A DNA stretch of 64,000 nt from the IMG/VR virus record IMGVR_UViG_3300035152_000026, positions 22,002-86,001 of that record; one strand, 5' to 3'. How positions within the stretch are numbered: the stretch's first letter is position 1; every line of letters begins with the position of its first letter. The position numbers were made by a program, and so were the translations under genes. Source of the stretch: a virus. This document shows positions 16,325-62,210 of this stretch, piece by piece. Below the pieces are notes generated by a model. It was given only the letters and a program-made list of their open reading frames with translations, was not told the origin of the DNA and searched no databases.

Positions 16325-16337
16325 GGCCCCGAGGGGC
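16325..16337 (+). promoter_or_regulatory. GGCCCC-GA-GGGGC start-proximal motif
   Basis: 15 nt upstream of ATG 16353. Confidence 0.5.
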
Positions 16338-16352
16338 GACGAGGAGTGGCAG

Positions 16353-16562
16353 ATGAGCAAAGCCGAGCCGAAGACCTGGAAGGAGCTGAAGGCGCAGGGC
16401 GTACAGCGTTGCTGCGCAACGTTTACGGGAGGCAGGCAGTGTCGGCGTAGGGCTGTCGCCAACGGTTTCTGCCGGAAGCACCAGTGGGTCCACAAGACCG
16501 CGCACGACCTGAACAAGGCGGCGCTCGACTCCCTTGCGCTCGACGATGAAGAGGACAAGTGA
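16353..16562 (+). CDS. small Cys-rich zinc-finger protein
   Basis: Preceded by a GGCCCCGAGGGGC motif and gaggag SD. CCATFTGGRQC...CRKH. Confidence 0.5.
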   Translation: MSKAEPKTWKELKAQGVQRCCATFTGGRQCRRRAVANGFCRKHQWVHKTAHDLNKAALDSLALDDEEDK

Positions 16563-16729
16563 TGAAGACCAGGAACAGGATCGAGCTGGAGGCACTGTCC
16601 ACGGCCCTCACTCAGTACATCGAGAACACCGCAGAGGACGAACTCGGTCACAACGACCAAGAGGAGCTACAGGCAATCAGATCCATGCTCGAACGGGTCA
16701 ACCTCGAACTCGTGAGAGTTTGGTGCTGA
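16562..16729 (+). CDS. small hypothetical protein (55 aa)
   Basis: TGATG overlap with the upstream gene. Below the ORF-track cutoff. Confidence 0.3.
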   Translation: MKTRNRIELEALSTALTQYIENTAEDELGHNDQEELQAIRSMLERVNLELVRVWC

Positions 16730-16744
16730 AGAAGATAATAAACG

Positions 16745-16951
16745 ATGCCACGGCAACACTGCGATAGCACCTGCTGGCACTGCGCAAGGCACTTCTTCGC
16801 CTGGCTGCGTGACCGCAATCGGCGCCCCAAGGACGGCCGGAGCGGCCCAGGCGACTTCTACGTCGAGGCTATCGCGAGCCGGCGCATCGCCGAGCTGGCT
16901 GATGAGGCGGCTGCACTGGAGATTTTCGAGCGTCAGAGCAGTGTGCGATAA
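16745..16951 (+). CDS. small Cys/His-rich protein
   Basis: 68-aa ORF with a weak SD. Confidence 0.3.
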   Translation: MPRQHCDSTCWHCARHFFAWLRDRNRRPKDGRSGPGDFYVEAIASRRIAELADEAAALEIFERQSSVR

Positions 16952-16956
16952 CAAGC

Positions 16957-16969
16957 GGCCCCGAGGGGC
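16957..16969 (+). promoter_or_regulatory. GGCCCC-GA-GGGGC start-proximal motif
   Basis: 12 nt upstream of TTG 16982 (MoxR). Confidence 0.5.
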
Positions 16970-16981
16970 GATGGAGGAAAC

Positions 16982-18082
16982 TTGTCCAAGTATCTCATTC
17001 CCGTGTTGAACTACACACAAGCAGCCGCCGCGGTGGCCGCTGCCCTTCGCGCGAGGCGAACCGCACTGCTGCTAGGTTCGCCAGGCGTTGGCAAAACGGC
17101 CCTCGTGCGTGATGCTGCGGCCGCCATTGGGTTGCCTTGCCACGATCTGATCGCGTCCAACATGGACCCGACAGACGTCGCGGGGCTGCCATACCGCGAT
17201 CTACAGTCGGGTCGGGTGCTGCGCGAGCTGTTTCCCGAGATTCGGGCCGTCGTGGACGCTGCGGGTGTCTTATTCATCGACGAGGCGACCGCGATGCCGA
17301 AATCGGTCGAGGGCCCGATGCTACGTGTTGCGATGGAACGCAACGCAGGCGGCACGCCGTTGCACCCGGGCAGCCCCGTAGTACTCGCGTGCAACCCGCC
17401 GGAACAGGCACCGGGCGGCATCGAGCTGTCGGCGGCATTCATCAACCGGATCGTGCTGCTTCGCTATCAGCCCTCATTCGCGGAAGTGCAGTCCTACTTC
17501 AACGGTGAGGCGGTTCACGCTTCTCCCGTAGTGCTCGACGAGGACGCCTTCCAGGCCGCATGCGTTGCGGAGTTCGCTGACTTCGCCGCGACGCTTTCCC
17601 ACGCTACTGATCTGCTCGTTTATGATCCGCCGCGTGCAAGCGTTGATCAGGGCGAGCCGTGGGCATCCCCTCGCGGCTGGGAGATCGGCCTCTCCTGCCT
17701 GGCAGCGCATGGCGGTAAAGAGGATGACGTTGGCTACGCGCTCCTGACAGGTGCCGTAGGACCGTCCGCTGCTGGCGCGTACCTGGCAATTCGCAAGCTC
17801 CGTCTGCACCTGCCATCCATCGATGAGATCGCGGCCAACCCAACCAAGGCACGGCTGCCCGAATCGCTCGATCAGCAGATCGCTGCCCTGGGTCTCCTGG
17901 CCCGAGTCGCGCAGACCGATGTCTGGGCCGCGTGGACCTACGCGGGCCGGCTGCGGAAAGAGATTGGAGCTGCCTGCGGACGGTTCCTAATGAACAAGGT
18001 GCCGCAGGCCTCTAAGTTCGCCACCGTCGGGCGCAAAGCCCAAATCCAACTGCTGGCAAGAGTGCAGCGTGGGGCAGCATGA
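16982..18082 (+). CDS. MoxR-like AAA+ ATPase
   Basis: Walker A GSPGVGKT, Walker B LFIDEA. TTG start after a GGCCCCGAGGGGC motif and ggagga SD. Confidence 0.8.
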   Translation: MSKYLIPVLNYTQAAAAVAAALRARRTALLLGSPGVGKTALVRDAAAAIGLPCHDLIASNMDPTDVAGLPYRDLQSGRVLRELFPEIRAVVDAAGVLFIDEATAMPKSVEGPMLRVAMERNAGGTPLHPGSPVVLACNPPEQAPGGIELSAAFINRIVLLRYQPSFAEVQSYFNGEAVHASPVVLDEDAFQAACVAEFADFAATLSHATDLLVYDPPRASVDQGEPWASPRGWEIGLSCLAAHGGKEDDVGYALLTGAVGPSAAGAYLAIRKLRLHLPSIDEIAANPTKARLPESLDQQIAALGLLARVAQTDVWAAWTYAGRLRKEIGAACGRFLMNKVPQASKFATVGRKAQIQLLARVQRGAA

Positions 18083-19311
18083 CATCAGCGACCAGACAGC
18101 TCATCCAGCGTGCCCGAGGGCTTTTGTTGGGCCTTGGTTGGCGACACCCATTCTTTGCTCTACCCGGTGCGAAGATCTACCTGCGTGTGTCCATCCACAT
18201 CCAGACTGCTTGTGCTGACGTACGTGGATGCGTGTACCTCAATCCGAGTTTCTGCGATCAGCTCTCGGACAAGCAGCTTACCTTCGTTCTGGCGCACGAG
18301 ATCATGCATCTGCTGCTGTTTCACTTTGGGCGGCGAATGAACCGCAAGCCGTTCCGCTGGAATCGTGCCGCGGATCGCGCAATCAACTTCGGTCTCGTGC
18401 AAATAGGGCTGGAAATGCCGCCCATGGGGTTACTTCCCACCGACCCGGCGCATAACGAGTACACAACAGAAGAACTCTACGAGGTCGAGGAAGAACAGCC
18501 AGGCGATGACGGTCAAGCCTCGCTGGGCAAGATGCCCGGAGCAACCGGTGGTTGTGGCGTGCTTCCACCTCAGGGTGGTGATGGCGATGGTGATGACGAT
18601 GGCGCCGAGGGTGAAGCACCAGAAGACGGCGCGGCGTTTCCCTCCACAGCTGAGTCAGCACGGACCTGGCGGCAGCTTGCTCACAGCGCTGAGCAGAACG
18701 CGCGCTCGGCAGGCGACTGCTCTGGAGATCTGCTTGCACGCGTGCTCCGCGTTCCACCATCCAAAGTGGCGTGGACTGCGGTGCTACGCAACGCATGTGC
18801 ACGTGCAATCGCTGAACGCGGCAACGACGACGTTAGTTGGCAGCGACGCAACCGGCGGTCGTTCGCGGGCGACTTCATTCTCCCAGGTGGAATCACGTCC
18901 AAGGCACTCGTCGCTGTGGCGGTAGACACCAGCGGTTCTGTCTCTGACGAAGACCTCGAACAAGCACTCAGCGAGGTGGAAGCAATCAGCCGTGCGACGG
19001 GTGTGGCCATATTTCTGGTCACACACGACGCGGAGGTGCACTTCGCCGACTGGATCCGTCCCGGCACACGACGAGCTGCTCTCGCCAAGACTCTGATCGG
19101 TCGCGGCGGAACGCTATACACGCCTGCGTACGCGGCCATCGAGAGCGCCAGCAAGAAGTTCGACTACGCGATCCATCTGACAGACGGTATGCCGTGTGAG
19201 ACGTGGCCTGAACGGCCGCGCAACTGCCGTAAGCTGACCGTCGCCTTGATCGGTTACGCGAGCAGAAAAGAAATTCCTGAGTTCGCTGATGTCATCGAGA
19301 TAGAAATCTGA
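18079..19311 (+). CDS. VWA-domain protein with N-terminal putative metallopeptidase domain (DUF2201-like)
   Basis: HEIMHLLLFH HExxH motif. VAVDTSGSVS MIDAS-like motif. ATGA-coupled to the MoxR ATPase. Confidence 0.75.
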   Translation: MTSATRQLIQRARGLLLGLGWRHPFFALPGAKIYLRVSIHIQTACADVRGCVYLNPSFCDQLSDKQLTFVLAHEIMHLLLFHFGRRMNRKPFRWNRAADRAINFGLVQIGLEMPPMGLLPTDPAHNEYTTEELYEVEEEQPGDDGQASLGKMPGATGGCGVLPPQGGDGDGDDDGAEGEAPEDGAAFPSTAESARTWRQLAHSAEQNARSAGDCSGDLLARVLRVPPSKVAWTAVLRNACARAIAERGNDDVSWQRRNRRSFAGDFILPGGITSKALVAVAVDTSGSVSDEDLEQALSEVEAISRATGVAIFLVTHDAEVHFADWIRPGTRRAALAKTLIGRGGTLYTPAYAAIESASKKFDYAIHLTDGMPCETWPERPRNCRKLTVALIGYASRKEIPEFADVIEIEI

Positions 19312-19314
19312 AAC

Positions 19315-19328
19315 GTCCCCGAGGGGAG
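19315..19328 (+). promoter_or_regulatory. GTCCCC-GA-GGGGAG start-proximal motif
   Basis: 7 nt upstream of ATG 19336. Confidence 0.5.
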
Positions 19329-19335
19329 AATAGAC

Positions 19336-20235: not shown

Positions 20236-20237
20236 TC

Positions 20238-20251
20238 GTCCCCGAGGGGAG
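20238..20251 (+). promoter_or_regulatory. GTCCCC-GA-GGGGAG start-proximal motif
   Basis: 6 nt upstream of ATG 20258. Confidence 0.5.
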
Positions 20252-20257
20252 CGTGCC

Positions 20258-21342: not shown

Positions 21343-22631
21343 GCCGCGAACGAGACCGCCGCGCGCCAGGGGCACTACCCCATGCGACACCGCAACGTGG
21401 TGGCGGATCACCCGGCAAGCGTACGCGCGTGCAGGCGCGTTACGGCAACGTTCCACCACCAATGCTGCCGCGACCTGAGATCGCGCAAGCAACCGTTCGA
21501 GCGCAATCCTGGGACGGCGAGCCCAAAGACATCTCGAATCTTCGCGAGGGGGACCTCGTGGACGTCACACTGCAACTCGATAGCCCTGACTGGCGTGATA
21601 TGTACGTGACGCCTTACGTTGTCGGTGCGAGTCCCGTACTCGAATCCATCGAGCACATGGCTCCCTGGGAGGGAACGCGTGACACGTACCACTTCGCGTT
21701 GCGCGCCACAGGAAAGCTGGGCACGGTTACCCCAAAAGCCGTGCTTGCGTTCAGCGGCACCGACGAAGACACCGAGTACGAGTTCATGGCCAGCTGCACG
21801 ATGGACCTAGCTCAGTTCGAGGATCAATGCCATGTCGCCTCAGAACACGCTATGCTGGCGTTCCATCGCATGGCTGAAATTCTGACCGCCGAGGGCGCAG
21901 CGTATTTCAAGGCGTACAAGCAATTCGAGACTGTGTTGGAGACGCCGCCTGATGACTCTCTGGCGGAAACGCTGCTGCTTGCCGCGCTCACACTGCTAGC
22001 CGGTGCTGGCGGTAGCACGGTTGGAAGTCTCCTCAAAGGTGGCAGCAAAGAGATTGGCCGCGTGGCGTTCGCGGACAGCATGAAGGACCTGGTGAAGTTC
22101 AGCATCAAGAAAGGCGCGGGCGATCTTGGTAGTGAGCCGCCGTCGCTAGAAGGGGGTCCCGCAGAGCCCTTCCAGTGGTATATGCACATGTCCGGTCAGC
22201 TGCACGGTCAAATGCAGTTCGTGCAGGAGGTCATCGACAGTTGGCGGCGTTCGGTTCGAGCGCATCGAATGCTCGCGGACTTCGATCCCGCGGTCGTCAT
22301 TCAAACGCATTTGCAGTTTGACGGCGCACCTATGACTACTCGTCCGATGCCGGACGTGGCGCAGCTTGAACGCAGTTTCGAGCTTGCGATCTGGCAAGCG
22401 TGGTTGACTGACTATGGGTATGTCCTCGCGCGCTCTCCAGTATACGTTCCGCAGACCGGTCGTGGGGCGCTCACAGTGCAACAGAACTTCAACGACGCTG
22501 TCATCGAGCGCTTGGACGCCCTGGGTGTTGATGGCGCTGCTTGGGTCGTACGCTTCAGTGGCCACGCGAAGGCTGCCGTAGAAAAGACGTTGAAGAAACG
22601 CAGCCTGGAAGAATACGAAAACAACCGTTGA
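21339..22631 (+). CDS. hypothetical protein (430 aa)
   Basis: ATGA overlap. Long ORF with coding bias. Confidence 0.6.
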   Translation: MSRERDRRAPGALPHATPQRGGGSPGKRTRVQARYGNVPPPMLPRPEIAQATVRAQSWDGEPKDISNLREGDLVDVTLQLDSPDWRDMYVTPYVVGASPVLESIEHMAPWEGTRDTYHFALRATGKLGTVTPKAVLAFSGTDEDTEYEFMASCTMDLAQFEDQCHVASEHAMLAFHRMAEILTAEGAAYFKAYKQFETVLETPPDDSLAETLLLAALTLLAGAGGSTVGSLLKGGSKEIGRVAFADSMKDLVKFSIKKGAGDLGSEPPSLEGGPAEPFQWYMHMSGQLHGQMQFVQEVIDSWRRSVRAHRMLADFDPAVVIQTHLQFDGAPMTTRPMPDVAQLERSFELAIWQAWLTDYGYVLARSPVYVPQTGRGALTVQQNFNDAVIERLDALGVDGAAWVVRFSGHAKAAVEKTLKKRSLEEYENNR

Positions 22632-35819: not shown

Positions 35820-36014
35820 ATGGGCCGTCGCCGAATACCGTTGCACAACATTCCGGTCCGTACGGAGCTGGGCCATAAGATCCGTGAAGCGTTCCGTGAA
35901 GCGTTTTGTGATTCCGCGTTGCTGACGATCGACTATTCAAGCATCGAGCCACGCATCCTAGAGCACCTCGAACGCCAAGGCGTACGGGCAGTGTGGCCAA
36001 AAGAACGCCTGTGA
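35820..36014 (+). CDS. small hypothetical protein
   Basis: ATG overlapping the upstream TGA. Confidence 0.35.
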   Translation: MGRRRIPLHNIPVRTELGHKIREAFREAFCDSALLTIDYSSIEPRILEHLERQGVRAVWPKERL

Positions 36015-43830: not shown

Positions 43831-44914
43831 CGGTTGTCGGGCAAGCTCTCAGATCATGTCCGAGGGAACCGACCTGATCCCGCGCCCACCCTGGCAAATT
43901 AGGCCCTCAGACGCTGCTCTGAGCCCCGATCTGCAAGACCGCCTAGAGGAGGCACTCCTGGCGTTCCGGCGCACCCTGGACTCCCCAGAGAGCGTACGCG
44001 GCTACCGTGACGACTGGCGCCGCTGGGTGGCTTGGCTCTCCGCCGAAGGGGTCCATCCACTGCACGCGCTGCCCCTGCACGTTCTGCGCTATCTCGTGAG
44101 CATGCAGGACGCTGGCAGGGCGAAGACGACGCGCTCACGCGCACTGGCCGTGATCCGTTCGACCTACGCCGCGCTGGTAGTTGCGTTCTCGGAGGTGCCT
44201 GGGGTGCTAGACGCAAACCCCGCGCGCGAGGTCCGAAACATCAAAGTGGATCACGAGCCGAAGACGCCCTGGCTCGCAGAAGACGAAATGCGCCGTCTCC
44301 TAATACGGCCGCCGTCAACCGCGCCGTGGGTAGAACGTCGCGATTGGGTTATCTGCGCCACGCTAGCAGGTACGGGTTGGCGTCGAGCGGAGATCGCACG
44401 CCTTCGTCGTGATGCGCTCCTCGACACCCCTGGTGGCTTCGCTGCGCAAGTGCACGCGAAAGGTGGCAAGGATGCCATCGTGCCACTTCCAGTTTGGTTG
44501 TCGCACGAGCTGGCGGAATGGTGCCAAGCCAATCGTATCGACGCAGGGCCAATATTCCCGCGACGCGAAGGCGCCGACGTGGCCGTTGGCCCCACGACAG
44601 TCAGGAACGCCGTGAAGCGATCAGCGGAACGCGCAGGGCTCGACCTGACACGCGCAACACCTCATGCGATTCGGCGTTCGTTCGCGACGATTACAGGTCA
44701 GCGTGGCGTCTCAATCGAAGATCGTCAGGCGGCGATGCTACATGCCTCAAAGGCGACAACAGAGCGCTACGACAAAGCGAGCAAACTGCCAGCACAAGCA
44801 CCCGGCGAAGTGCTTCGCGATCTTGTCGAGCCATCGAATGGCGAAGCAAACGCCGCCGCATCAAATGACACGCAGCCAAAAACTTGGCCGCCGCGTCGAG
44901 CTGATTACGAGTGA
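43811..44914 (+). CDS. int: tyrosine recombinase / phage integrase
   Basis: C-terminal catalytic motifs HAIRRSF and TTERYD (R...HxxR...Y). Preceded by an AT-rich region. Confidence 0.85.
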   Translation: MPVDDNTGCRASSQIMSEGTDLIPRPPWQIRPSDAALSPDLQDRLEEALLAFRRTLDSPESVRGYRDDWRRWVAWLSAEGVHPLHALPLHVLRYLVSMQDAGRAKTTRSRALAVIRSTYAALVVAFSEVPGVLDANPAREVRNIKVDHEPKTPWLAEDEMRRLLIRPPSTAPWVERRDWVICATLAGTGWRRAEIARLRRDALLDTPGGFAAQVHAKGGKDAIVPLPVWLSHELAEWCQANRIDAGPIFPRREGADVAVGPTTVRNAVKRSAERAGLDLTRATPHAIRRSFATITGQRGVSIEDRQAAMLHASKATTERYDKASKLPAQAPGEVLRDLVEPSNGEANAAASNDTQPKTWPPRRADYE

Positions 44915-45162
44915 AATGTATCGTCAGGATAGACGGGTGAGACTTGCTCAACGGCGTCCAGCGCAGCGCGGCGAACCGCTGCCCACGCCGCGGTGTAGCC
45001 CTCTCGCCATCCTGCGTCCTCGCCTGACGCGACGATGCCGAGACCGTGGCGTAGTAGATCGCGGAGCGCAGCAGACAGGGATATGCCGCGGGTCTGCGCA
45101 TGCTGTACCAGGTACGTGTGTAGCTCGTCGTCAAGAAGCACGTTGATGTGGTGTGACGCCAT
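44905..45162 (-). CDS. ribbon-helix-helix (CopG-like) DNA-binding protein
   Basis: INVLLDDELHTYLVQHAQTRGISLSAALRDLL. Convergent with int. Paralog of 15987..16238 (shared WREGYTAA motif). Confidence 0.55.
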   Translation of the reverse strand: MASHHINVLLDDELHTYLVQHAQTRGISLSAALRDLLRHGLGIVASGEDAGWREGYTAAWAAVRRAALDAVEQVSPVYPDDTFHS

Positions 45163-45277: not shown

Positions 45278-45291
45278 GACCCCGAGGGGTC
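45278..45291 (+). promoter_or_regulatory. GACCCC-GA-GGGGTC start-proximal motif
   Basis: 12 nt upstream of ATG 45304. Confidence 0.5.
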
Positions 45292-46679: not shown

Positions 46680-46840
46680 AACAGCAAATCCCCACCATCA
46701 ACTGGACCCACACAAAGCTGGAGCGCTTCGCCAAGCTCGTGGAGGCCACCAAGGGCGATACCCTGGTGTTCGAGGGCCACACGTTTGACAAGCGCTACGC
46801 GGAGTACCTGATCGAGTTTCTGCGAGCCCAACTGCTATGA
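46676..46840 (+). CDS. small hypothetical protein (54 aa)
   Basis: ATGA overlaps at both ends. Confidence 0.3.
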   Translation: MKQQIPTINWTHTKLERFAKLVEATKGDTLVFEGHTFDKRYAEYLIEFLRAQLL

Positions 46841-47076
46841 ACGACGCCACAACCAAGCTCAAAGTACGTGTGCACAAAGCACTCGATACCCTCCTGCATG
46901 ACGTGCTCAAGAACGTGTCCGTGAGTGACGAGCTACAGGTGCGTCTCGTTGTGACACTCGCGATCCGTGAGTGGACGCTCACACAAGTAGACTACCTGAC
47001 CAAATCCCAGACGCTGATCGACGCGTACAAAGAGAAGCGTGACCGCGAAGTAGCAGATAACTGTCCACCGAAGTGA
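46837..47076 (+). CDS. hypothetical protein
   Basis: 79 aa. Its 3' end lies inside a 57-bp direct repeat. Confidence 0.4.
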   Translation: MNDATTKLKVRVHKALDTLLHDVLKNVSVSDELQVRLVVTLAIREWTLTQVDYLTKSQTLIDAYKEKRDREVADNCPPK

Positions 47077-47115
47077 TCGAACGGCCCCGAGGGGTGAAAA
47101 GGATCAACGATGAAA
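47059..47115 (+). repeat. 57-bp direct repeat, copy 1 (second copy at 47336-47392)
   Basis: aactgtccaccgaagtgatcgaacggccccgaggggtgaaaaggatcaacgatgaaa against the second copy, with 3 mismatches. The pair flanks ORF 47110..47331. Confidence 0.8.
47083..47095 (+). promoter_or_regulatory. GGCCCC-GA-GGGGT start-proximal motif
   Basis: 14 nt upstream of ATG 47110. Inside 57-bp direct repeat copy 1. Confidence 0.5.
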
Positions 47116-47331
47116 CATAACATCCTGTACGTCGTCACCTACCGCACGCCGCACCTACCAGGCGTTGCTATCGTGTACGCAGCGTCGCCCGCTGAAGCGG
47201 TTGCGCTGGCACGCAGCGCGCCCGATCCAAACGACCCGAACTGCAAGCTGGAGCGTGAAGACCTCGACGTTGAGCCGCTCACCAAATCAGATAGCTCGGC
47301 TGTCCTCTACGACTTCTGCCACGAGGAGTAG
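47110..47331 (+). CDS. hypothetical protein
   Basis: GGCCCCGAGGGGT motif plus aaagga SD. Flanked by 57-bp direct repeats. Confidence 0.45.
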   Translation: MKHNILYVVTYRTPHLPGVAIVYAASPAEAVALARSAPDPNDPNCKLEREDLDVEPLTKSDSSAVLYDFCHEE

Positions 47332-47359
47332 TACAAACTGTCCACCGAAGTGATCGAAC

Positions 47360-47372
47360 GGCCCCGAGGGGC
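47360..47372 (+). promoter_or_regulatory. GGCCCC-GA-GGGGC start-proximal motif
   Basis: 14 nt upstream of ATG 47387. Inside 57-bp direct repeat copy 2. Confidence 0.5.
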
Positions 47373-47386
47373 AAAAAGGATCAACG

Positions 47387-47539
47387 ATGAAATCCGTAGC
47401 ATTGGACCTCGATATTCACGAAGCGAACGCGCTAATCGCGCTGCTTTCTGTGGCCGCGGACGATGACCTGGAGACTCTTGCGCGACTGCTCGCAGTACGC
47501 AACCGGCTTCGACAGCTCACTAGGTGGGCGCAACGCTAG
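47387..47539 (+). CDS. small hypothetical protein (50 aa)
   Basis: Same motif plus SD as 47110. Confidence 0.3.
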   Translation: MKSVALDLDIHEANALIALLSVAADDDLETLARLLAVRNRLRQLTRWAQR

Positions 47540-49282: not shown

Positions 49283-49295
49283 GGCCCCGAGGGGC
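49283..49295 (+). promoter_or_regulatory. GGCCCC-GA-GGGGC start-proximal motif
   Basis: 12 nt upstream of ATG 49308. Confidence 0.5.
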
Positions 49296-51554: not shown

Positions 51555-51567
51555 GGCCCCGAGGGGC
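51555..51567 (+). promoter_or_regulatory. GGCCCC-GA-GGGGC start-proximal motif
   Basis: 13 nt upstream of ATG 51581. Confidence 0.5.
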
Positions 51568-54891: not shown

Positions 54892-55389
54892 ATGCCGATG
54901 GGAGAAGGCTTCTGGATTCATTCGCGGAGCGGGCGCTGGGAGCCCGTCTACGAGCACCTGGACGCGATCCTCGAAGATCCGTCAACGTATGGCTTGTCCG
55001 AAATCCAGGTCAGGATGAAGCGTGGTGAGAGCGCTGAGGACCGCCGCGAGCGAGTGCTGGTCGCCGCGATGAAGAAAGGCTGGATCCGTGCCCGGAGCCA
55101 CCGAGGCTACACGGTGTTCGAGTACTGGACACTCAACCGAAGAATCGCAGACGCGATTTTTGACTTCATCGTTGAGGTGCTCGGTGCGGGGCCTGCGGCA
55201 AGCTACCAGCTCAACGAGATCCGCAGTGGACGTGGTTTCAGCGTCAACGCGCGGGACTTCTACGATCAAGTCGAGGCACAGCTCGCAGGCGCGTGCGCTG
55301 ATCCCGAAGATGCTGGTGGTGAGACGCTCTATCTGCTAGGGTGCGCCATGGGTCAGGGCCGCTGCGCTGACCACCACCCCGAGGGGTAA
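54892..55389 (+). CDS. hypothetical protein
   Basis: SD ggagg. 165 aa. The stop lies inside a CCCCGAGGGG motif. Confidence 0.5.
   Translation: MPMGEGFWIHSRSGRWEPVYEHLDAILEDPSTYGLSEIQVRMKRGESAEDRRERVLVAAMKKGWIRARSHRGYTVFEYWTLNRRIADAIFDFIVEVLGAGPAASYQLNEIRSGRGFSVNARDFYDQVEAQLAGACADPEDAGGETLYLLGCAMGQGRCADHHPEG
55375..55388 (+). promoter_or_regulatory. CACCCC-GA-GGGGTA motif (no start codon follows)
   Basis: Overlaps the stop of 54892..55389. First of two motifs flanking a 54-bp segment in a noncoding region. Confidence 0.4.
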
Positions 55390-55438: not shown

Positions 55439-55451
55439 TGCCCCGAGGGGC
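55439..55451 (+). promoter_or_regulatory. TGCCCC-GA-GGGGC motif (no start codon follows)
   Basis: Second motif of the pair in noncoding region 55390-55672. Confidence 0.4.
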
Positions 55452-55672
55452 TTTGAGGATTTCTGGAGAGGAGCGACCAGTAGTGTTCAACCGCCTGGCG
55501 GCTGCGGGAAGGGAGGAACGGTGCTGACCACACCGGGGTGCCTGGAACGCCACGGATTGGTCATTCGTGAGCCTGTAGCTTGTGAGTTTCCTACAGGCGA
55601 GGACGGGTTCGATTCCCCGAAACGTTAGTCCGGCGCTGGTCGCTCTTCTTCACTTTGCTAAAGGAAATGATC

Positions 55673-56603: not shown

Positions 56604-56866
56604 GCCGACGGTTGGCAACCATCGCCCGCGAGATCAACGAGCACTGCTCGGGGATCACAGCCAAGATCGTGCAAGGTTACTGCGACACTGACCGCAAGAT
56701 CGGCCGGCTGCGCGTACCGGGAAAAGGGCGCTACGGCAATCGCATTATCATTCACGACGACGCGACCGGCCGCGTGTTGTTTGACCATAACGCGGCGGAG
56801 ACGTACCGCTGCAATGCCGAGGTCGAGTACTGGCTCGCGGACTGGAAGCGCAGGAAAGGCCGATGA
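56600..56866 (+). CDS. hypothetical protein
   Basis: ATGA overlap. The 3' end lies in a 28-bp tandem repeat. Confidence 0.4.
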   Translation: MSRRLATIAREINEHCSGITAKIVQGYCDTDRKIGRLRVPGKGRYGNRIIIHDDATGRVLFDHNAAETYRCNAEVEYWLADWKRRKGR

Positions 56867-56924
56867 GCTACGGAAGCGCAGGAAAGGCCGATGAGCTACG
56901 GAAGCGCAGGAAAGGCCGATGAGC
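56845..56924 (+). repeat. 28-bp tandem repeat, 2.9 copies (GAAGCGCAGGAAAGGCCGATGAGCTACG)
   Basis: Exact copies at 56845-56872 and 56873-56900, partial copy at 56901-56924. Spans the stop of 56600..56866 and the start of 56919..57473. Confidence 0.8.
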
Positions 56925-57473
56925 TACTGTCGCTGGGGAGCGCACTCTGACGTGTACGTGTTCGGCACGCTTGATAACAGGCTCGAATGTTGTAACTGCG
57001 GCCTGGTAGCAGATTTCGATGATTTCTGTGCGGCGACCGCCGCTGAGATGATCACACATCTCGAAGAGCATGTTGCACGCGGCGACAAGGTACTCCATTA
57101 CGCGTTCGAGCGTCTACGTATCGAGGCACGTGCTGAGACACTGCTTGCAGCTGGCTACGTTCGGCAGGAGTCTCGCTGGCAGCTACCGCGACAGCTCGGG
57201 TTGGCACGCGTAGCATGCACTCATGCGGTCAGCCGCGGTGTGTACCCGGACGACCCTGACGAGTATCCGGCTGACTATCACTACGTCGGCTGCCCCGAGC
57301 AATGGGTGCTGGCATGGGCGGAGCGAATCGCACAGCAGCCGGCACCCATCGACGAGCGCCGACGAATGCTGCGGTTGGCCGTCTCGGACCGAGATCGCCA
57401 GGATGCGTTGCTGGCAGCGCTGCGAATCGGCCACGCCCCAAACCACGTGATCATGAACCTACTTGCAGTCTAA
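56919..57473 (+). CDS. Cys-rich hypothetical protein
   Basis: The start lies in the last copy of the 28-bp tandem repeat. Confidence 0.5.
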   Translation: MSYCRWGAHSDVYVFGTLDNRLECCNCGLVADFDDFCAATAAEMITHLEEHVARGDKVLHYAFERLRIEARAETLLAAGYVRQESRWQLPRQLGLARVACTHAVSRGVYPDDPDEYPADYHYVGCPEQWVLAWAERIAQQPAPIDERRRMLRLAVSDRDRQDALLAALRIGHAPNHVIMNLLAV

Positions 57474-57560: not shown

Positions 57561-57573
57561 GGCCCCGAGGGGC
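57561..57573 (+). promoter_or_regulatory. GGCCCC-GA-GGGGC start-proximal motif
   Basis: 19 nt upstream of ATG 57593. Confidence 0.5.
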
Positions 57574-57592
57574 AAACGGAGACAAGAAGACA

Positions 57593-57817: not shown

Positions 57818-57887
57818 GTCACCTACGAGATGGACGCGCTCGATACGTACTCCTCACGTTCACGGCTTCGTAGCCGTTAGGTAGACC

Positions 57888-58280: not shown

Positions 58281-58293
58281 CGTCAGTCAGCAT

Positions 58294-58306
58294 GGCCCCG
58301 AGGGGC
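58294..58306 (+). promoter_or_regulatory. GGCCCC-GA-GGGGC start-proximal motif
   Basis: 15 nt upstream of ATG 58322 (GHKL ATPase). Confidence 0.5.
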
Positions 58307-58321
58307 GAACGGAGGACCAAA

Positions 58322-59644
58322 ATGAGGATCGAGACCACTATCGAGGAGCCGTACGTCGATCATTGGGGCGCCATCGAAGGCATCCGCGAGATCGTCCAGA
58401 ACGGCAAAGACGCCGAGACCGAATTCGGCGCCAAGCTCGTTGTGCGTTGGAGAAACAACGTGCTGCGCGTCGAGAACAACGGCGCTACGCTCGACAAGAG
58501 CGCTATCCTGATGGGCCGCACCTCGAAGCGCAGCCGCGCCGATATGATCGGCAAGTGGGGCGAGGGCCTGCCTGTCGGCTGCCTCGCGCTCGTCCGTGCA
58601 GGCTACGAGGTCCGCATCCGCACCGGCGCTGAGGTCTGGATTCCGCGCGTCGAGGAGTCGAACAAGTTCGATGGCGCCCGCGTACTGGTTTTCGAGATCC
58701 TCAAACGCAAGCACCGCGACCGTGTGTGCGTCGAGATCCGCGGCGTGGACAAAGCGGAGTGGGCGACCATCCGCTCGCGTTTCCTCTTCCTGGCCCGGCC
58801 GAGGCCAAACGAGATCATCGAGACGGACTACGGCGACCTGTTGCTCGCTTCACGCTATCGCGGCGATCTGTTCATCAAGGGCATCTTCGTCCAGCACGAC
58901 GATACGTTGACTCACGGCTACAACTATCGCAACGCGGACTATGACCGCGACCGGCGCATGGTGGAAGATTTCGATAAGCGGAGCAACAACCGCCACATCT
59001 GGGAAGAGGCTGTTGCGCGCCGCCCGGACCTATTCCGTACCTACTACGATCTTCTTACCGCAGGCGCACGCGACCTCGATGGCGTAACTCAGTACAGCGT
59101 CCCGTATATGCAGGACGCTGCCCTCGACGGCGTTGCCGAGGCGTTCATCGCGCAACACGGCGAGAAAGCCGTCCCCTGCGAAAACCTTGGCGAGTGTCAG
59201 GACCTGGAACATCTCGGTCGAATGGGCGTCATCGCGCCCGAATCACTGCGCGCAATCGTCGCGCACAAGATCGGATCCGTGGAGACGGTGAAGGCTGCGC
59301 TGGCAAAAGAGGTCGTCAGGAAATACTCGTGGCATGAGCTGGACGCCACTGAGCGCGCGCACCTGACCGCTGCCATCGAGTTGGTAGCAGCCGCAACTGA
59401 GTGCGCCCTCGCGGATGTGGACGTCGTGGACTTCCGCTCTGAGACCCTGCAAGGTCAATACAAGGACGGTCGCTTCGCTATCGCAAAGCGGGACCTCGCA
59501 GACCGTGATCTGACGCTCGAAATCCTCGTGCATGAGGTCGCCCACCGTGCTGGCAGTGACGGCGAGAAATCACACGTGGCGACCATCGAGAACATCTGGT
59601 CCAAGATCGTCGCAGCGCTCCGCAACCAACTGCCGAAGCCATGA
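58322..59644 (+). CDS. GHKL-family (HATPase_c-like) ATPase with C-terminal HExxH segment
   Basis: N-box EIVQNGKDA, G1-like NNGATLD, G2-like IGKWGEGL. Later ILVHEVAHRAG. GGCCCCGAGGGGC motif plus ggagga SD. Confidence 0.6.
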   Translation: MRIETTIEEPYVDHWGAIEGIREIVQNGKDAETEFGAKLVVRWRNNVLRVENNGATLDKSAILMGRTSKRSRADMIGKWGEGLPVGCLALVRAGYEVRIRTGAEVWIPRVEESNKFDGARVLVFEILKRKHRDRVCVEIRGVDKAEWATIRSRFLFLARPRPNEIIETDYGDLLLASRYRGDLFIKGIFVQHDDTLTHGYNYRNADYDRDRRMVEDFDKRSNNRHIWEEAVARRPDLFRTYYDLLTAGARDLDGVTQYSVPYMQDAALDGVAEAFIAQHGEKAVPCENLGECQDLEHLGRMGVIAPESLRAIVAHKIGSVETVKAALAKEVVRKYSWHELDATERAHLTAAIELVAAATECALADVDVVDFRSETLQGQYKDGRFAIAKRDLADRDLTLEILVHEVAHRAGSDGEKSHVATIENIWSKIVAALRNQLPKP

Positions 59645-59952
59645 GCCGACCACCGACCACTGCTTACCTTCTCCATGTAGACGAGCACCCGAGTCATTGG
59701 GTCGCGTTCGTACCGTTCTGCACGAACCCCAACAATCGCCGGCAGTGGCTTTGGATGCGCACCGAGGCTTGCGCGCTGCTCGTTGCGTGCCCGAATTGTG
59801 GATCTACGCCAGGCATGTTGTGTCGCAGCGCTCGGGGATCTCCCTGGGGCTCAACACACAGCGCCCACCGCGACGCTTTCCGTAAGATGGTCAAGGACGA
59901 CATCACGACCGTGCGAGCGTTGGCCTTCAAATTCAAGGTGGAAGGCGTCTGA
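59641..59952 (+). CDS. zinc-finger small protein
   Basis: ATGA overlap. CPNCG...C. Confidence 0.45.
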   Translation: MSRPPTTAYLLHVDEHPSHWVAFVPFCTNPNNRRQWLWMRTEACALLVACPNCGSTPGMLCRSARGSPWGSTHSAHRDAFRKMVKDDITTVRALAFKFKVEGV

Positions 59953-60047
59953 GAACCCATGTTGGCATCTGTCACACGCGCCTGCTATAGTAGGCGTCCA
60001 CTCGGGCCGGAGGCCACAGAAACTACCAGCTCGACGAGGCAAAATCT

Positions 60048-60704
60048 ATGCGCTACAAACGAGGCGAGAGCGAAGAACCAGGGCTGCGTGAACGACGCGT
60101 ATCGAGGACGACAGGAACGACCGTTTCGATCTACGACGCCGACGAGCTGGATGCCCAACAACTAGCCCGCTGGAGGGGACAAGCACCCAAACACCGCTGG
60201 ATCGTCTGCTGCGAAGATCACTGCACCGTAGGCAGCGTCCCAACGCTTGCCGAGGCGCGCGCATTGCTATCCAGCTGCGGTTGGTGCTACGACTGTCGGC
60301 TCACCATGTTCGGCGCTGAGCTGCCTTGTGATGCTTGTGGCCGTCCCGTAGTGTGGTGCACGGAAGACGACATCACGCTCTGTGACGTCTACGATGTACA
60401 CGATACGGCGTTGCTCGACGACGACGACGCACTGGTTGGCCTGCGTGTCGGTCACGCAATCTACTGCGATATGTGTGCTCCGCTGGCAATCCATGACCGG
60501 TGCCAAAACTGTGCGCGCGGCCCCGAGGCAATCACTCCGCAAGGTCCCGTACCGGTCCCGGTCCTGACAACGAGGTCTGAGCTTCCTGCGCTGTCCGCAG
60601 CAGGCCCCATCGAAGTGATAGACCTCGTACAAGCGCCAGTGCAGCCCGGAAGCTGGGCTGCGGTACTCCGTGCGGGGCTACAACATCGCAGAGGACGCAA
60701 CTGA
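60048..60704 (+). CDS. multi-zinc-finger hypothetical protein
   Basis: 218 aa with about 16 Cys in CxxC pairs. Confidence 0.5.
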   Translation: MRYKRGESEEPGLRERRVSRTTGTTVSIYDADELDAQQLARWRGQAPKHRWIVCCEDHCTVGSVPTLAEARALLSSCGWCYDCRLTMFGAELPCDACGRPVVWCTEDDITLCDVYDVHDTALLDDDDALVGLRVGHAIYCDMCAPLAIHDRCQNCARGPEAITPQGPVPVPVLTTRSELPALSAAGPIEVIDLVQAPVQPGSWAAVLRAGLQHRRGRN

Positions 60705-60747
60705 ACTGATTTCGATGGATAGCGAAGGCTCCGAGGAGCAGCGCATT

Positions 60748-61017
60748 ATGAACAACAACAAGCTGAGACCAACTGTCGAGGACGCTCACGCCGCTTCCAG
60801 GTGGGGATTTGCTAACACATTCACTGCTCGCTCGGTCGCCTTAGCGGTAGCGCAACGGCTCGGCCCCGATGACCGTGAAGGCGCTTGGTGGTACGCAAAG
60901 GTTCGGGTGTGTGCGCGAAATGCCCTTGAAGAGTGGCTACGTGAAAAAGTAATCGAGGCGGCCCCCCGATCAGGACAACCGACCGAATATCGATTCGTGA
61001 AGAAGGAGAGAACATGA
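60748..61017 (+). CDS. hypothetical protein
   Basis: SD aggagcag. Confidence 0.4.
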   Translation: MNNNKLRPTVEDAHAASRWGFANTFTARSVALAVAQRLGPDDREGAWWYAKVRVCARNALEEWLREKVIEAAPRSGQPTEYRFVKKERT

Positions 61018-61838
61018 GGGCAATCGTATTGGCTGAGATCAACAGTGACGGCACGCAAGGTGAGGTGCACACCTGCCGCGGCAGTGTGATCAAGATTGGA
61101 AAAATGAAACGCTCGGGGTTGAAGCTCAACCATCCTTCAGTCAGTCGGATGCACGCGGTGTTCGAGTGCGAGCCTGGAGGCATTGTCCACCTAGTCGATC
61201 TGGGTAGCGTGCAAGGTACGTTCATCAACGAGAAGCAGATCAACAAAGCAGCCGTCAAAGTCGGCGACACGGTTCGTTTTGGTGACGTGATGCTCGCGGT
61301 TCGTGAGATTACGGACGAGGATGACACAGATGAAGCTGAAGCTGAAGCTGAAGCTGAAGCTGAAGCTGAAGCTGAAGCTGAAGCTGGTACCGCAGATGCA
61401 GCCTCTACAGGGCTCAGCGATCTCGCGGCCCGTATTGATCGGCTCAAACGTATCCGCAACATATACAGTGCAGGAGCTGCGCAGAGCAGCGCCGAGGTAC
61501 CGAGCATAGGAAAGCTGGCCAGTACTGCCATCGTCCACAGCGTACTCGACGCCAACGCGCCAAAACAAATCGCTGACGTGATCAACGATGTCTGTGACAA
61601 CGTTGCCGAGCTGCGCAAAATCGCGTCCGCTGACCGTGTTACGCAAGCGCTGGACGGTCTCATCCAAGACTGGGCGCCTGTGTTGCAGGTCATCGGTAAG
61701 TACAGGGAGGCGAACGTCGAACGTACTGCGTTGTTCCGTGCCGGCTTGATCAAGAAGCTCAAGGACGAATTCGATCTGAGCGAGGCCAACGCAGTGGAGA
61801 TCGTTCAATCAGCGTCGGAAACGTCCAACCTGACTTGA
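61014..61838 (+). CDS. FHA-domain protein with (EA)n linker
   Basis: N-terminal FHA signature (GSVIKIGK...VSRMHAVFE...LVDLGSVQGTFIN). Then (EA)x13 encoded by a GAAGCT tandem repeat. Confidence 0.7.
   Translation: MRAIVLAEINSDGTQGEVHTCRGSVIKIGKMKRSGLKLNHPSVSRMHAVFECEPGGIVHLVDLGSVQGTFINEKQINKAAVKVGDTVRFGDVMLAVREITDEDDTDEAEAEAEAEAEAEAEAEAGTADAASTGLSDLAARIDRLKRIRNIYSAGAAQSSAEVPSIGKLASTAIVHSVLDANAPKQIADVINDVCDNVAELRKIASADRVTQALDGLIQDWAPVLQVIGKYREANVERTALFRAGLIKKLKDEFDLSEANAVEIVQSASETSNLT
61332..61386 (+). repeat. (GAAGCT)n hexanucleotide microsatellite, about 9 copies
   Basis: Encodes the (EA)n linker in the FHA-domain protein. Confidence 0.85.
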
Positions 61839-61883
61839 GGAGAGATAGCGAAGACGCTATCGATGAGGAGGAGGAAAACGCTG

Positions 61884-62192
61884 ATGACAGATGATCCCGC
61901 ACACGAATACACGGTTCCTGGCGGTGCTGCGGCAGCCCTCTCGACAATGCGCCCTGAGATGGCCCGTATCGTGGCCACACAGCTTCGTGAGGGCATCCTG
62001 CAACCGCTGTCGCCAGAAGAGCAAGCTGGCCTTCTCGACCTGGTAGCTGACCTCATTCAGCGTGTCAGCGATGACCAGGATCAACTCCGCGATATTCTAC
62101 TCACGGTGCGTGGAATCCGCGAATACGGTAAAGGCCTACAAGGCATGTCGGAGAAGATCATTGCAGCTCTAGCTGCTTGCAACGTTGGTTGA
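61884..62192 (+). CDS. hypothetical protein
   Basis: SD gaggagg. 102 aa. Confidence 0.45.
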   Translation: MTDDPAHEYTVPGGAAAALSTMRPEMARIVATQLREGILQPLSPEEQAGLLDLVADLIQRVSDDQDQLRDILLTVRGIREYGKGLQGMSEKIIAALAACNVG

Positions 62193-62196
62193 ATGG

Positions 62197-62210
62197 GGCT
62201 CCGAGGAGCC
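62197..62210 (+). promoter_or_regulatory. GGCTCC-GA-GGAGCC variant motif upstream of the Cas12-like gene
   Basis: Perfect 6-2-6 inverted repeat with the same GA centre, 16 nt upstream of ATG 62227. Confidence 0.4.

Follow-up and report, generated by a model that had tools for sequence, protein, structure and literature searches.

A start-associated repeat in an uncultivated phage is best read as an mRNA hairpin with a YNMG-type c(CGAG)g loop

A short self-complementary motif recurs just upstream of start codons in the uncultivated phage of IMG/VR record IMGVR_UViG_3300035152_000026, and is also found in its close relatives. In the window (the whole 64,000-nucleotide stretch analysed here, positions 22,002 to 86,001 of that record), the motif is best read as an mRNA hairpin that is start-associated, clade-specific and capped by a c(CGAG)g loop of the YNMG type. 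Judged from sequence, it seems reasonably likely that this hairpin acts in translation control rather than as a protein site on duplex DNA, and it would probably serve as an operator for that control.

The 10-mer CCCCGAGGGG occurs as 14 exact matches in the 64-kb window, against 0.14 expected from 100 dinucleotide shuffles in which the highest count was 2, placing its frequency well above a shuffled background. The 14-mer with up to two mismatches is similarly over-represented in the window (12 matches vs 0.62 expected). Allowing one mismatch in the 10-mer adds just four sites, with 3.6 expected in total, and the core is therefore essentially invariant. Among perfect palindromes (5 bp or longer, 2-nt centre), 25 have GA in the middle, compared with 1-8 for each other dinucleotide. 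Thirteen of the 14 exact copies lie on the coding strand. The other, at 12528-12537 on the minus strand, falls inside coding sequence (DPSGP), has no minus-strand gene downstream and is not conserved in the relative L217; it is most likely a chance occurrence. Two variants, CTCC-GA-GGAG, lie upstream of genes 60748 and 62227. The copies reported in the first-pass annotation are real and its coordinates are all correct, but it overlooked one of these variants, at 60728-60739, 9 nt before start 60748.

The copies are listed below, with distances to the start codon counted from the end of the 10-mer unless stated otherwise (SD, Shine-Dalgarno sequence; L217 and L220 are relatives).

16326..16337, plus strand: GCCCC-GA-GGGGC, 16 nt before ATG 16353 (a Cys-rich protein of 69 aa); the SD, GAGGAG, is separate; gene 16353 is the first after the divergent RHH gene 15987-16277 (minus strand); orthologous copies conserved at L217 7063 and L220 305
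16958..16969, plus strand: GCCCC-GA-GGGGC, 13 nt before TTG 16982 (MoxR-like AAA ATPase), with SD GGAGGA and an upstream stop 7 nt away; orthologous copies at L217 7587 and L220 1175
19316..19327, plus strand: UCCCC-GA-GGGGA (U:A outer pair), 9 nt before ATG 19336 and 5 nt past a stop; the 3' arm with the following AG (GGGGAG) serves as the sole SD, which is partly within the stem; U:A variant kept at the orthologous L217 9978 and L220 3565
20239..20250, plus strand: UCCCC-GA-GGGGA, 8 nt before ATG 20258 and 4 nt past a stop; the 3' arm is the SD; orthologous copies at L217 10912 and L220 4462
45278..45291, plus strand: GACCCC-GA-GGGGUC (A:U then G:C, six pairs), 14 nt before ATG 45304, the first gene after the divergent RHH gene 44905-45162 (minus strand), which adjoins the integrase
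47084..47095, plus strand: GCCCC-GA-GGGGU (G:U wobble outer pair), 15 nt before ATG 47110
47361..47372, plus strand: GCCCC-GA-GGGGC, 15 nt before ATG 47387
49284..49295, plus strand: GCCCC-GA-GGGGC, 13 nt before ATG 49308
51556..51567, plus strand: GCCCC-GA-GGGGC, 14 nt before ATG 51581, with SD GAGGAG 1 nt past the hairpin
55376..55387, plus strand: ACCCC-GA-GGGGU (A:U outer pair), overlapping the last codons and TAA of 54898-55389, with no convincing start adjoining
55440..55451, plus strand: GCCCC-GA-GGGGC, in a gap of 283 nt that has no convincing ORF, upstream of a possibly structured non-coding stretch (55464-55652)
57562..57573, plus strand: GCCCC-GA-GGGGC, 20 nt before ATG 57593, with SD GGAG
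58295..58306, plus strand: GCCCC-GA-GGGGC, 16 nt before ATG 58322, the start of a conserved 440-aa protein; GGCCCCGAGGGGCGAACGGAG is a conserved stretch
60728..60739, plus strand: GCUCC-GA-GGAGC variant, 9 nt before ATG 60748, with no SD other than the 3' arm, GAGGAG; third pair changed from C:G to U:A, compensatory
62197..62210, plus strand: GGCUCC-GA-GGAGCC variant (six pairs), the end of the 14-mer 16 nt before ATG 62227, with a separate SD, AAGGAG

The two arms vary in concert. Across 29 copies from the window and the relatives L006, L007 and L217, all 116 pair cells hold standard pairs, double changes fall in 12 cells vs 2.5 in shuffles, and none of 500 shuffles reaches the observed pairing; when the pairing register is slid, only 29-80% of positions pair. 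The outer pair is G:C in 18 copies, U:A in eight, A:U in two and G:U in one, while the third pair is C:G in 27 and U:A in two, CCCC/GGGG changing to CUCC/GGAG jointly. With orthologues collapsed to 19 independent sites, the chance of all outer pairs matching is about 2.5e-6. The variant types are few (four for the outer pair, two for the third), some were inherited by orthologues, and at least one copy of the 47084/47361 pair arose by duplication of 58 nt. The repeat had been described as 6-2-6, but the conserved pairing is 5-2-5: the outermost G is present in 27 of 29 copies, and its partner may be G, C or A. The resulting 12-base form, 5'-N CCC[CGAG]GGG N'-3', has a stem of four to six pairs capped by a c(CGAG)g loop.

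Folding predictions give the hairpin a stability of -5.8 to -9.3 kcal/mol and an occupancy of 67-99% in isolation, and predict it in 13 of 14 native contexts, usually with the SD unpaired. Relative to shuffles the context folds gain no stability (z from -2.1 to +0.4), and the short stem has a modest energy. YNMG tetraloops are defined by Y = C or U, N = any base and M = A or C (PMC2346598, PMC5633025), and the loop reads CGAG in 34 of 35 copies and CAAG, which still fits, in one (L007 8174). The closing pair is always C-G, and the Watson-Crick stem expected to close a YNMG loop is kept by compensatory changes, with 100% pairing. No Rfam family reached the gathering threshold anywhere in the window. 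The motif does not behave as an intrinsic terminator: the terminator scan recovered no copy, none is followed by a T-tract, and purine-rich sequence (CGA or CAA, then GGAG) makes up the 3' flanks.

The motif is tied to translation starts. For 11 of the 13 plus-strand copies, the end falls 8-20 nt ahead of a called start (binomial p ~3e-17, with about 2% of positions qualifying). The short spacing first reported was recovered, 6-18 nt when counted from the 14-mer being the same as the 10-mer distances given above. The 3' end of the hairpin lies 1-6 nt upstream of the SD, or the SD is contained in the hairpin, and the centre of the loop is 13-25 nt from the start codon and 8-12 nt from the SD. 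It had been claimed that a separate SD follows; this is true for most copies, but those at 19317, 20240 and 60729, together with their orthologues in relatives, have the 3' arm as their only SD. Every non-coding copy shares the orientation of its gene. Of two copies that had been placed in noncoding sequence, the one at 55441 does lie in a gap, but the one at 55377 covers the last codons and stop of 54898-55389 (CCC GAG GGG TAA).

Within the window the motif falls in two blocks, where it marks 13 of 26 gapped gene starts, against 0 of 23 at 20.5-45 kb (Fisher p = 7e-6). Its reported absence from the 1-16 kb module is confirmed, and the 20.5-45 kb region likewise lacks it. From this block-wise distribution it is plausible that the motif genes form a temporal class. 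Many of the marked genes are small ORFs of unknown function. Both blocks start 50-118 bp from the divergent RHH genes listed above. Where gaps are long, the motif lies near the downstream start and away from the upstream stop, and the copies at 16327, 45280, 49285, 57563 and 58296 head gene strings after such gaps; some others sit within the 22-30-nt spacers of obviously co-transcribed strings.

Comparison with related phages showed the motif core to be invariant at orthologous sites while the proteins are 52-82% identical; more distant relatives lack the motif. Four sites, including the U:A variant, are shared by the window, L217 and L220, where the proteins are 52-76% identical and the adjacent intergenic bases diverge. 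The site before the 440-aa gene is kept at L006 9976 and L007 9976 (82% and 75% identity), with a scrambled upstream flank. L217 (18534) and L220 (12518) also carry the motif on the minus strand ahead of a gene of that strand, its distance to AAGGAG-N7-ATG being unchanged. A conserved -10-like element, TATAAT in L217 and TACAAT in L220, lies 21-23 nt upstream of this copy, with an extended -10 TG present in L217 and absent in L220. Because the -10-like element is upstream of the motif, the hairpin would lie about 15 nt into the 5' UTR. The element is known as a sequence match only, a sigma-70 scan requiring a -35 having found nothing there, and sigma-70-type promoters are not enriched in the window.

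The covariation, the gene-following orientation, the SD spacing and the upstream -10-like element together argue for a hairpin in mRNA. What separates RNA from single-stranded DNA here is position, orientation and the single G:U pair. The first-pass annotation had instead seen the footprint of a dimeric DNA-binding protein. On that account the motif would be a stoperator-like operator on duplex DNA for a phage regulator (one of the two RHH proteins or a winged-helix protein), a repressor bound there blocking early or lysogeny-controlled transcription, which we consider unlikely. Such a site would suit the invariant, near-palindromic 10-bp core and the nearness of both blocks to RHH genes, and the position downstream of the -10-like element in L217 and L220 would be a possible place for a roadblock. 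However, a dimer on a palindrome explains neither the covariation by which the arms stay complementary (the 12 double-change cells vs 2.5 in shuffles) nor the G:T combination, and a symmetric site leaves unexplained why the asymmetric GA centre follows the downstream gene, including on the minus strand in L217 and L220. Nor does this account give a reason for the constant 1-6 nt distance to the SD or for the copies whose 3' arm serves as SD, and the -10-like element lies upstream of the motif. Half-sites of 4-5 bp set 2 bp apart, as found here, are unusually short for RHH or HTH dimers. The many intergenic, one-orientation copies in non-structural blocks do resemble the 13-bp L5 stoperators (PMC3203893).

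Orientation and a covarying hairpin would also suit an N4-type promoter. In this alternative, which appears very improbable, each motif would be a compact promoter for a phage-specific RNA polymerase or sigma factor, perhaps as an extruded DNA hairpin, and each gene would have its own transcription start. The copies that head gene strings after long gaps fit such a role, as does the lack of sigma-70-type enrichment in the window, and the distant relatives L093/L079 and L022/L008 have long, highly repeated promoter-like cassettes before many genes. Yet a start about 11 nt downstream would put the SD at the extreme 5' end of the transcript, copies occur inside the short spacers of co-transcribed strings, and TATAAT or TACAAT precedes the motif in L217 and L220. 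Furthermore, the proteins of the 64-kb window (the contig is at least 150 kb) yielded no RNA polymerase or sigma domain, and N4 loops are of 3 nt, compared with a 2-nt centre or 4-nt loop here.

The motif can also be gained and lost, because the orthologue of one marked gene lacks it. The 527-aa protein of gene 62227 has a TnpB/Cas12f-like match just under the Pfam threshold, and the perfect GGCTCC-GA-GGAGCC variant reported 16 nt upstream of this Cas12-like gene is confirmed; its L007 orthologue (75% identical) has no motif at all upstream. The suggestion that this gene belongs to the same regulon is weak, as it has the CUCC/GGAG variant only and the orthologue is without the motif. Such gain and loss would be expected of a short hairpin-plus-SD module passively duplicated with shuffled genes, or serving as their recombination joint, with no regulatory role, as proposed for T4-type promoter-stem-loop cassettes. 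This is the least probable of the explanations weighed here, although the identical core in all copies and the many marked small ORFs of unknown function would agree with it, and the 47084 and 47361 copies do belong to a paralogous 58-nt cassette duplication with two mismatches, which takes in the 3' end of the gene upstream. Outside this 47 kb pair, however, the flanks of the copies have no mutual similarity, and the compensatory variants maintain pairing. The core is invariant at the four orthologous sites although the adjacent bases have diverged, and purifying selection is therefore needed.

Under the mRNA-hairpin reading, the hairpin would occupy the 5' UTR, or the spacer between cistrons, in a defined group of non-structural genes. 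It would work in cis, affecting how translation of about 15 genes is initiated and possibly also how stable their mRNA is locally. Where the 3' arm is the SD, translation of the upstream gene may open the stem; such translational coupling is suggested by an upstream stop codon 4-5 nt away in two of these three copies. As the core is identical amid scrambled intergenic bases, it is probably read sequence-specifically by a trans-acting factor, which may be a phage- or host-encoded RNA-binding protein or the ribosome. If so, the marked genes would constitute a translational regulon. Among RNA-level roles we lean modestly towards an operator for a trans-acting factor, and rate a role of structure alone (RBS insulator, 5' stabiliser or coupling device) as somewhat less probable. 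A structure-only role predicts more stem variety among the 35 copies, and their near-invariance also fits sequence-specific DNA recognition.

A more specific version is tentative and rather doubtful: that a phage-encoded protein reads the c(CGAG)g hairpin by the SD of about 15 genes as a dedicated translational regulon, switching a temperate-phage module. The copies at 55377 and 55441 are without a convincing adjoining start; heading a possibly structured non-coding stretch, these orphans might act in that case as decoy or titrating RNA. No RNA-binding protein candidate was identified in this work; possible binders include the 69-aa Cys-rich basic protein 16353, the 83-aa protein 45304 and the two RHH proteins. 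To our knowledge, no translational regulon of this multi-gene, structure-specific kind has been described in phages. If true, the regulon reading would hint at the role of start-associated sequences in other phages.

Of known systems, the motif most resembles the start-associated sequence (SAS) of cluster K mycobacteriophages, to which it had been likened; the genomic behaviour is indeed alike, but the motif is not a member. SAS occurs in about 11-19 copies per genome, is absent from unrelated phages, lies a few bases before starts in one orientation, precedes non-structural genes only and is conserved with gene families across subclusters, and a role in translation initiation has been suggested (PMC3203893). 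It is a 13-bp asymmetric, non-palindromic sequence, GGGATAGGAGCCC, which contains the SD and lies 3-7 bp from the start (PMC3203893; 2025 survey); this consensus has no match with up to two mismatches in the window. Both elements share multiple copies, a single orientation, a position directly upstream of starts, a restriction to non-structural genes and conservation with gene families. The present motif, in contrast, is self-complementary and its arms covary; it is found 8-20 nt from the start, mostly with a separate SD, and host and phage lineage are unrelated to cluster K. According to Pope et al. 2011 (PMC3203893), departures from the ESAS inverted repeats linked to SAS give no support to RNA pairing, whereas variation here keeps it.

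Cluster A stoperators (L5 gp71 sites) are likewise numerous 13-14-bp sites in short intergenic spaces with one orientation to transcription. They are, however, asymmetric duplex-DNA repressor sites without pairing covariation or SD-linked spacing, in contrast to a self-complementary motif with compensatory changes. The N4 virion RNA polymerase uses three promoters with 5-7-bp stems and 3-nt loops and requires the giant virion polymerase. These resemble the motif as short G+C hairpins with a purine-containing loop, oriented with transcription upstream of genes, but here there are 15 copies, 13-25 nt from starts and downstream of a -10-like element in two relatives, and no polymerase gene in the window.

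Intercistronic C(UUCG)G hairpins were reportedly described in phage T4 mRNA by Tuerk et al. in 1988. They too have small G+C stems and a C-G-closed UNCG/YNMG tetraloop and recur between cistrons, the likeness of the present loop to the UUCG type being one of loop sequence. The T4 stems vary in sequence and keep no fixed distance to the SD, whereas here the 10-base core is invariant, the SD spacing is fixed and only some blocks carry the motif. Hairpin operators near the ribosome-binding site are known for MS2 and PP7 coat protein, T4 gp43 and the Mu Com target, all single-copy, and RegA of T4 controls many transcripts through unstructured, degenerate sites. Like these, the phage motif would be an element of the RNA located at the SD or immediately 5' of it, and in those systems a protein reads the element to control initiation; the phage motif differs from them as one invariant hairpin repeated before about 15 genes.

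In the 64-kb window, dinucleotide-preserving shuffles predict 0.14 copies of the 10-mer core CCCCGAGGGG (maximum 2 in any shuffle); 14 are present, which confirms the earlier observation, and the 10-mer tops all repeated 9-12-mers of the window by a wide margin. The 14-mer with up to two mismatches gave 12 sites (0.62 expected), and allowing one mismatch in the 10-mer added just four sites, which is chance level. Thirteen copies lie on the plus strand, as do nearly all genes in a codon-usage gene map. In 11 of these 13 the 10-mer ends 8-20 nt upstream of a start codon (binomial p ~3e-17), at the 11 positions listed in the first-pass annotation. The remaining copies, and two variants of the stem, are as follows.

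55377, plus strand: overlaps the last codons and stop of gene 54898-55389
55441, plus strand: within a 283-nt gap that lacks a convincing ORF
12528-12537, minus strand: the 14th copy, inside a coding region
CTCC-GA-GGAG variants (two): before gene 60748 and before the TnpB/Cas12f-like gene 62227

Two orphan copies had been described as noncoding, which is true of 55441 and not of 55377. The minus-strand copy is probably due to chance, since it is coding, has no minus-strand gene downstream and is not conserved in the relative L217. The variant before 60748 is an addition to the original list.

The distribution of the motif along the window is strongly uneven.

Motif at gene starts, counting plus-strand genes with a preceding gap of at least 20 nt
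1-16 kb: 0 starts with motif, 6 gapped starts
16.0-20.5 kb: 4 starts with motif, 5 gapped starts
20.5-45 kb: 0 starts with motif, 23 gapped starts
45-64 kb: 9 starts with motif, 21 gapped starts

The reported absence from the structural module (0 of 6 gapped starts) and the class-specific distribution both stand, the latter with Fisher p = 7e-6 for the two motif blocks against the rest. Two RHH-like genes, 15987-16277 and 44905-45162, are divergent from the two blocks, each of which begins directly past one of them. Based on this confinement, it is reasonable that the motif marks a gene class.

At 47 kb, a 58-nt direct repeat with 2 mismatches (47059-47118 and 47336-47395) spans the final 18 nt of gene 46837-47076 together with the hairpin, its SD and ATGAAA, so that the whole start cassette is duplicated before two small, unrelated ORFs of 73 and 50 aa. 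The motif as a passive duplication or recombination cassette is nevertheless very unlikely, as visible duplication is limited to this 47084/47361 pair. Separately, a 28-nt unit GGAAGCGCAGGAAAGGCCGATGAGCTAC is present in three tandem copies (56844-56930); the array enters the start of gene 56919-57473, giving several in-frame ATGs with identical upstream context.

For a closer view of the element, we aligned 29 copies from the window and its relatives L006, L007 and L217. The ten bases of the core vary little or not at all, and the bases flanking the core pair in every copy (G:C in 18, T:A in 8, A:T in 2 and G:T in 1). The next outer 5' base is G in 27/29, and the base opposite is non-complementary. 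Counting perfect palindromes of 5 bp or more around a 2-nt centre, we found 25 with GA and 1-8 with each other dinucleotide. Purines dominate the 3' flank (CGA or CAA), and the SD begins 1-6 nt past the stem. This motif-SD distance is fixed whereas the distance to upstream stops is not, and the motif adjoins the start even in gaps of 89-504 nt.

The first-pass annotation had described a separate SD after most copies. This holds, but at 19317, 20240 and 60729, and in their orthologues, the 3' arm with its following bases (GGGGAG, GAGGAG) forms the sole SD; at 19317 and 20240 an upstream stop codon lies just 4-5 nt 5' of the stem. We rejected the motif as simply the RBS on the basis of the separate SDs and of the normal SDs without motif at the 23 gapped starts between 20.5 and 45 kb. 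A terminator was dismissed because no T-tract follows the motif, which keeps its position relative to the downstream start and not to the upstream stop. An AvaI-type restriction site (CYCGRG within the core) was also dropped: enrichment runs counter to the usual avoidance of such sites, and CYCGRG is missing from the CUCC variant.

A covariation model of four pairs and a CGAG loop was then evaluated over 116 pair cells. All 116 are paired, with 12 double changes compared with 2.5 in shuffles; 500 shuffles yielded no pairing or covariation score as high as that observed, and sliding the register lowered pairing to 29-80%. Compensatory changes affect the outer pair (G:C to U:A or A:U) and the third pair (C:G to U:A, giving CUCC/GGAG). 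When orthologues are collapsed to 19 independent sites, the exact chance that all outer pairs match is ~2.5e-6. The sole non-Watson-Crick pair, a G:T in a paralogue of a G:C copy, pairs on the sense strand only.

The GA centre runs with gene direction in every non-coding copy. In the relatives L217 and L220, a minus-strand gene carries a minus-strand motif at the usual spacing (CCCCGAGGGG-cgag-AAGGAG-N7-ATG), with a conserved block GATCGCGTTTG(G/A)TA(T/C)AATGGGACATGAAGTCGAACAA upstream. The TATAAT/TACAAT of this block, a sequence match only, lies 21-23 nt upstream of the motif, which would put the start of the hairpin ~15 nt into the 5' UTR. A sigma-70 scan, which requires a -35, reported nothing at these two loci. 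It appears very unlikely that the motif serves a phage polymerase as a compact or hairpin promoter, because the SD would fall at the extreme 5' end of the transcript, a -10-like element already lies upstream of the motif, and such a polymerase was not found in the window.

Of the 14 native contexts folded with ViennaRNA, 13 were predicted to form the hairpin, usually leaving the SD open, and isolated hairpins were predicted at -5.8 to -9.3 kcal/mol and 67-99% populated. The stability of the native-context folds is unremarkable, so the case for structure is based on covariation, not energy. Given the pairing covariation, strand co-orientation and fixed RBS spacing, this conserved, SD-linked element is most simply read from its sequence as a hairpin in mRNA. 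Contrary to this, the first-pass annotation had proposed the footprint of a dimeric DNA-binding protein. Such a protein on duplex DNA explains none of four features (covariation, orientation, transcript position and SD spacing), all of which favour a sense-strand hairpin; a duplex-DNA operator of the stoperator type is unlikely. The C-G-closed CGAG loop, and its single variant CAAG (L007 8174), fit YNMG (Y = C/U, N = any, M = A/C), the consensus of UUCG-like tetraloops; natural loops of enterovirus oriL domain d, which is bound by protein 3C, include CGAG (PMC2346598, PMC5633025).

We infer an effect of the hairpin on translation initiation. At copies whose 3' arm serves as the SD and that have an upstream stop 4-5 nt away, upstream translation would melt the stem, giving classical translational coupling; at the remaining copies, the hairpin would border a free SD. 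Structure alone seems insufficient, because stem and loop are invariant while neighbouring intergenic bases have been replaced between lineages. For this reason we favour recognition by a putative trans-acting factor; the element would then be a translational operator and its genes a regulon. Alternatives at the RNA level are that the element stabilises the 5' end or a processing site, or that it insulates the RBS.

Conservation was followed through the relatives. L006 and L007, in which the 440-aa product of gene 58322 is 82% and 75% identical, carry four and five exact copies, respectively (plus the CAAG variant in L007), all before SDs; at their 440-aa genes GGCCCCGAGGGGCGAACGGAG is retained and the sequence upstream of it is unrelated. 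In L217 and L220 (52-76% identity for proteins encoded around the MoxR-like ATPase gene), the motif is kept at 4/4 orthologous sites (window 16327, 16959, 19317 and 20240), as is the U:A outer pair of 19317 and 20240. The motif is absent from L218 and L219 (47-49% identity) and from 80 further relatives of the 440-aa protein (37-50%). An IMG/VR scan for GCCCCGAGGGGC-N1-9-GGAG gave only single-copy matches among those listed, which we take to be chance. Being kept in close and absent from distant relatives, the motif is, as judged by sequence comparison, under strong purifying selection within one clade; it is unnecessary for expression of the same genes elsewhere, which fits a lineage-specific regulatory layer.

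Several of the 80 further relatives carry repeated cassettes of their own. L218 has another start-proximal pattern, GGGGAGAnnTAGACC-ATG, and its start cassettes read RGGGAGAnnTAGACC-ATG, where TAG can double as the upstream stop codon. In L022/L008, inverted repeats of the form GAAAACTCCCA-N5-GGGAGTTTTCC number 12 in 15 kb and often have a G+C hairpin before them. GA-centred palindromes in L027 were dismissed as they lie in coding sequence. The distant relatives L093/L079 carry 12-18 copies per 10-20 kb of a ~60-nt gene-upstream cassette, often preceded by a tRNA-3'-end-like GGTTCGAGTCCTGGCAGGAGCA, at which ARAGORN found no tRNA.

L093/L079 cassette (e.g. L093 1032, 4548, 7069, 16039): TTCTCCGGTTTCACT-N7-CCCGTAGARGGG-N12-CACAAGGAGGTT-N4-ATG

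This looks like a lineage-specific promoter plus leader. We rejected homology of the L093/L079 cassettes (TTCTCCGGTTTCACT-N-CCGTAGA-N-CACAAGGAGGT) with our motif, as RNAalifold gave no conserved local hairpin in them and the layout resembles a two-block promoter and leader. With several relatives bearing their own repeats, expression signals that evolve fast and differ between lineages may be characteristic of the family.

The source contig, which recurs in several metagenomes, has a length of at least 150 kb. Searched by megablast against 50,697 phage records, 40 kb of the window gave no match, and scans of the window found no Rfam families or tRNA genes. The principal protein features are listed below.

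43856-44914: tyrosine integrase (Pfam)
16982-19311: MoxR-like AAA ATPase and DUF2201/VWA partner (Pfam)
62227-63810: TnpB/Cas12f-like protein, 527 aa (Cas12f1-like TNB domain, 25.5 bits vs cut-off 26.3)
6505-6948, 6967-7377, 12385-12855 and 13615-14112: four paralogous proteins of 136-165 aa in the structural/fibre module

Further Pfam matches were to DUF5131, FGE-sulfatase, thioredoxin and FHA; the Cas12f1-like TNB hit listed above is weak. The four paralogues have in common the N-terminal MAxTFTLxExTxxRLRYLC and the C-terminal YAYLDIEFEHTITR (or a similar sequence), match no Pfam family and have homologues in L217. The 440-aa protein belongs to a large environmental family whose cultured-phage homologues are hypothetical proteins only ~25% identical to it; an IMG/VR protein scan found no relatives. 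An isolated 64-aa ORF (35820-36014) aligns with an interior segment of family A DNA polymerase (PF00476 positions 127-170), with E = 2.8e-7 and a score short of the gathering threshold. No full polymerase gene is adjacent, and the ORF may be a fragment of a gene or belong to a split polymerase.

The TnpB/Cas12f-like protein has a Cys- and His-rich N-terminal insertion. Its proposed place in the regulon is weak: the CTCC-GA-GGAG variant precedes 62227, but a 75%-identical orthologue (L007 18225-19823), in a different neighbourhood after a PARP-like gene, lacks the motif. That orthologue, and the same variant before the unrelated 60748, also led us to reject an IS200/IS605 end hairpin.

A different palindrome with a GA centre, GATCGCG-GA-CGCGATC, whose symmetry continues into the flanks, occurs three times (2053-2068, 7976-7991 and 12293-12308), 46-85 nt upstream of structural-module genes 2133, 8029 and 12385, and may be an operator or late-promoter element of these genes. 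In L217 and L220, its half-site GATCGCG lies just 5' of the -10-like TATAAT/TACAAT; the distant relative L043 has one full copy (4293). Following motif copy 55441, the non-coding stretch 55464-55652 may be a structured small RNA: GGAGAGGAGCGACCAG (55466-81) is able to pair with CTGGTCGCTCTTCTTC (55637-52), and 55605-17 holds a perfect tRNA/tmRNA-type T-arm GGGTTCGATTCCC, with a partial Rfam tmRNA match (E = 0.02); ARAGORN found no tRNA or tmRNA there.

Repeated start-associated motifs are already known from the start-associated sequences (SAS) of cluster K mycobacteriophages, described ~14 years ago. Our motif is an independent case, unrelated to SAS, whose sequence itself carries mechanistic information, and it would show how a phage marks a gene subset for joint post-transcriptional control. 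The element is unusually clean and gives a directly testable model, yet is of a known genre. In practice, NCCCCGAGGGGN' followed by an SD is a signature by which this uncultivated phage clade can be recognised and start codons fixed in its annotation.

The suggested analogy to SAS holds for genomic behaviour, namely copy number, start association, a single orientation, restriction to non-structural genes and conservation with gene families. It fails for the defining sequence features, the SAS consensus being absent from the window. SAS are asymmetric, contain the SD and lie 3-7 bp from the start, and for the SAS-linked inverted repeats (ESAS) the authors saw no support for RNA pairing (PMC3203893). 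Our motif, unlike SAS, is a covarying hairpin. T4 has intercistronic C(UUCG)G hairpins, and hairpin translational operators are also known; the motif resembles both. We have filed it as a start-associated conserved motif, set apart by its covarying hairpin and outside every named family.
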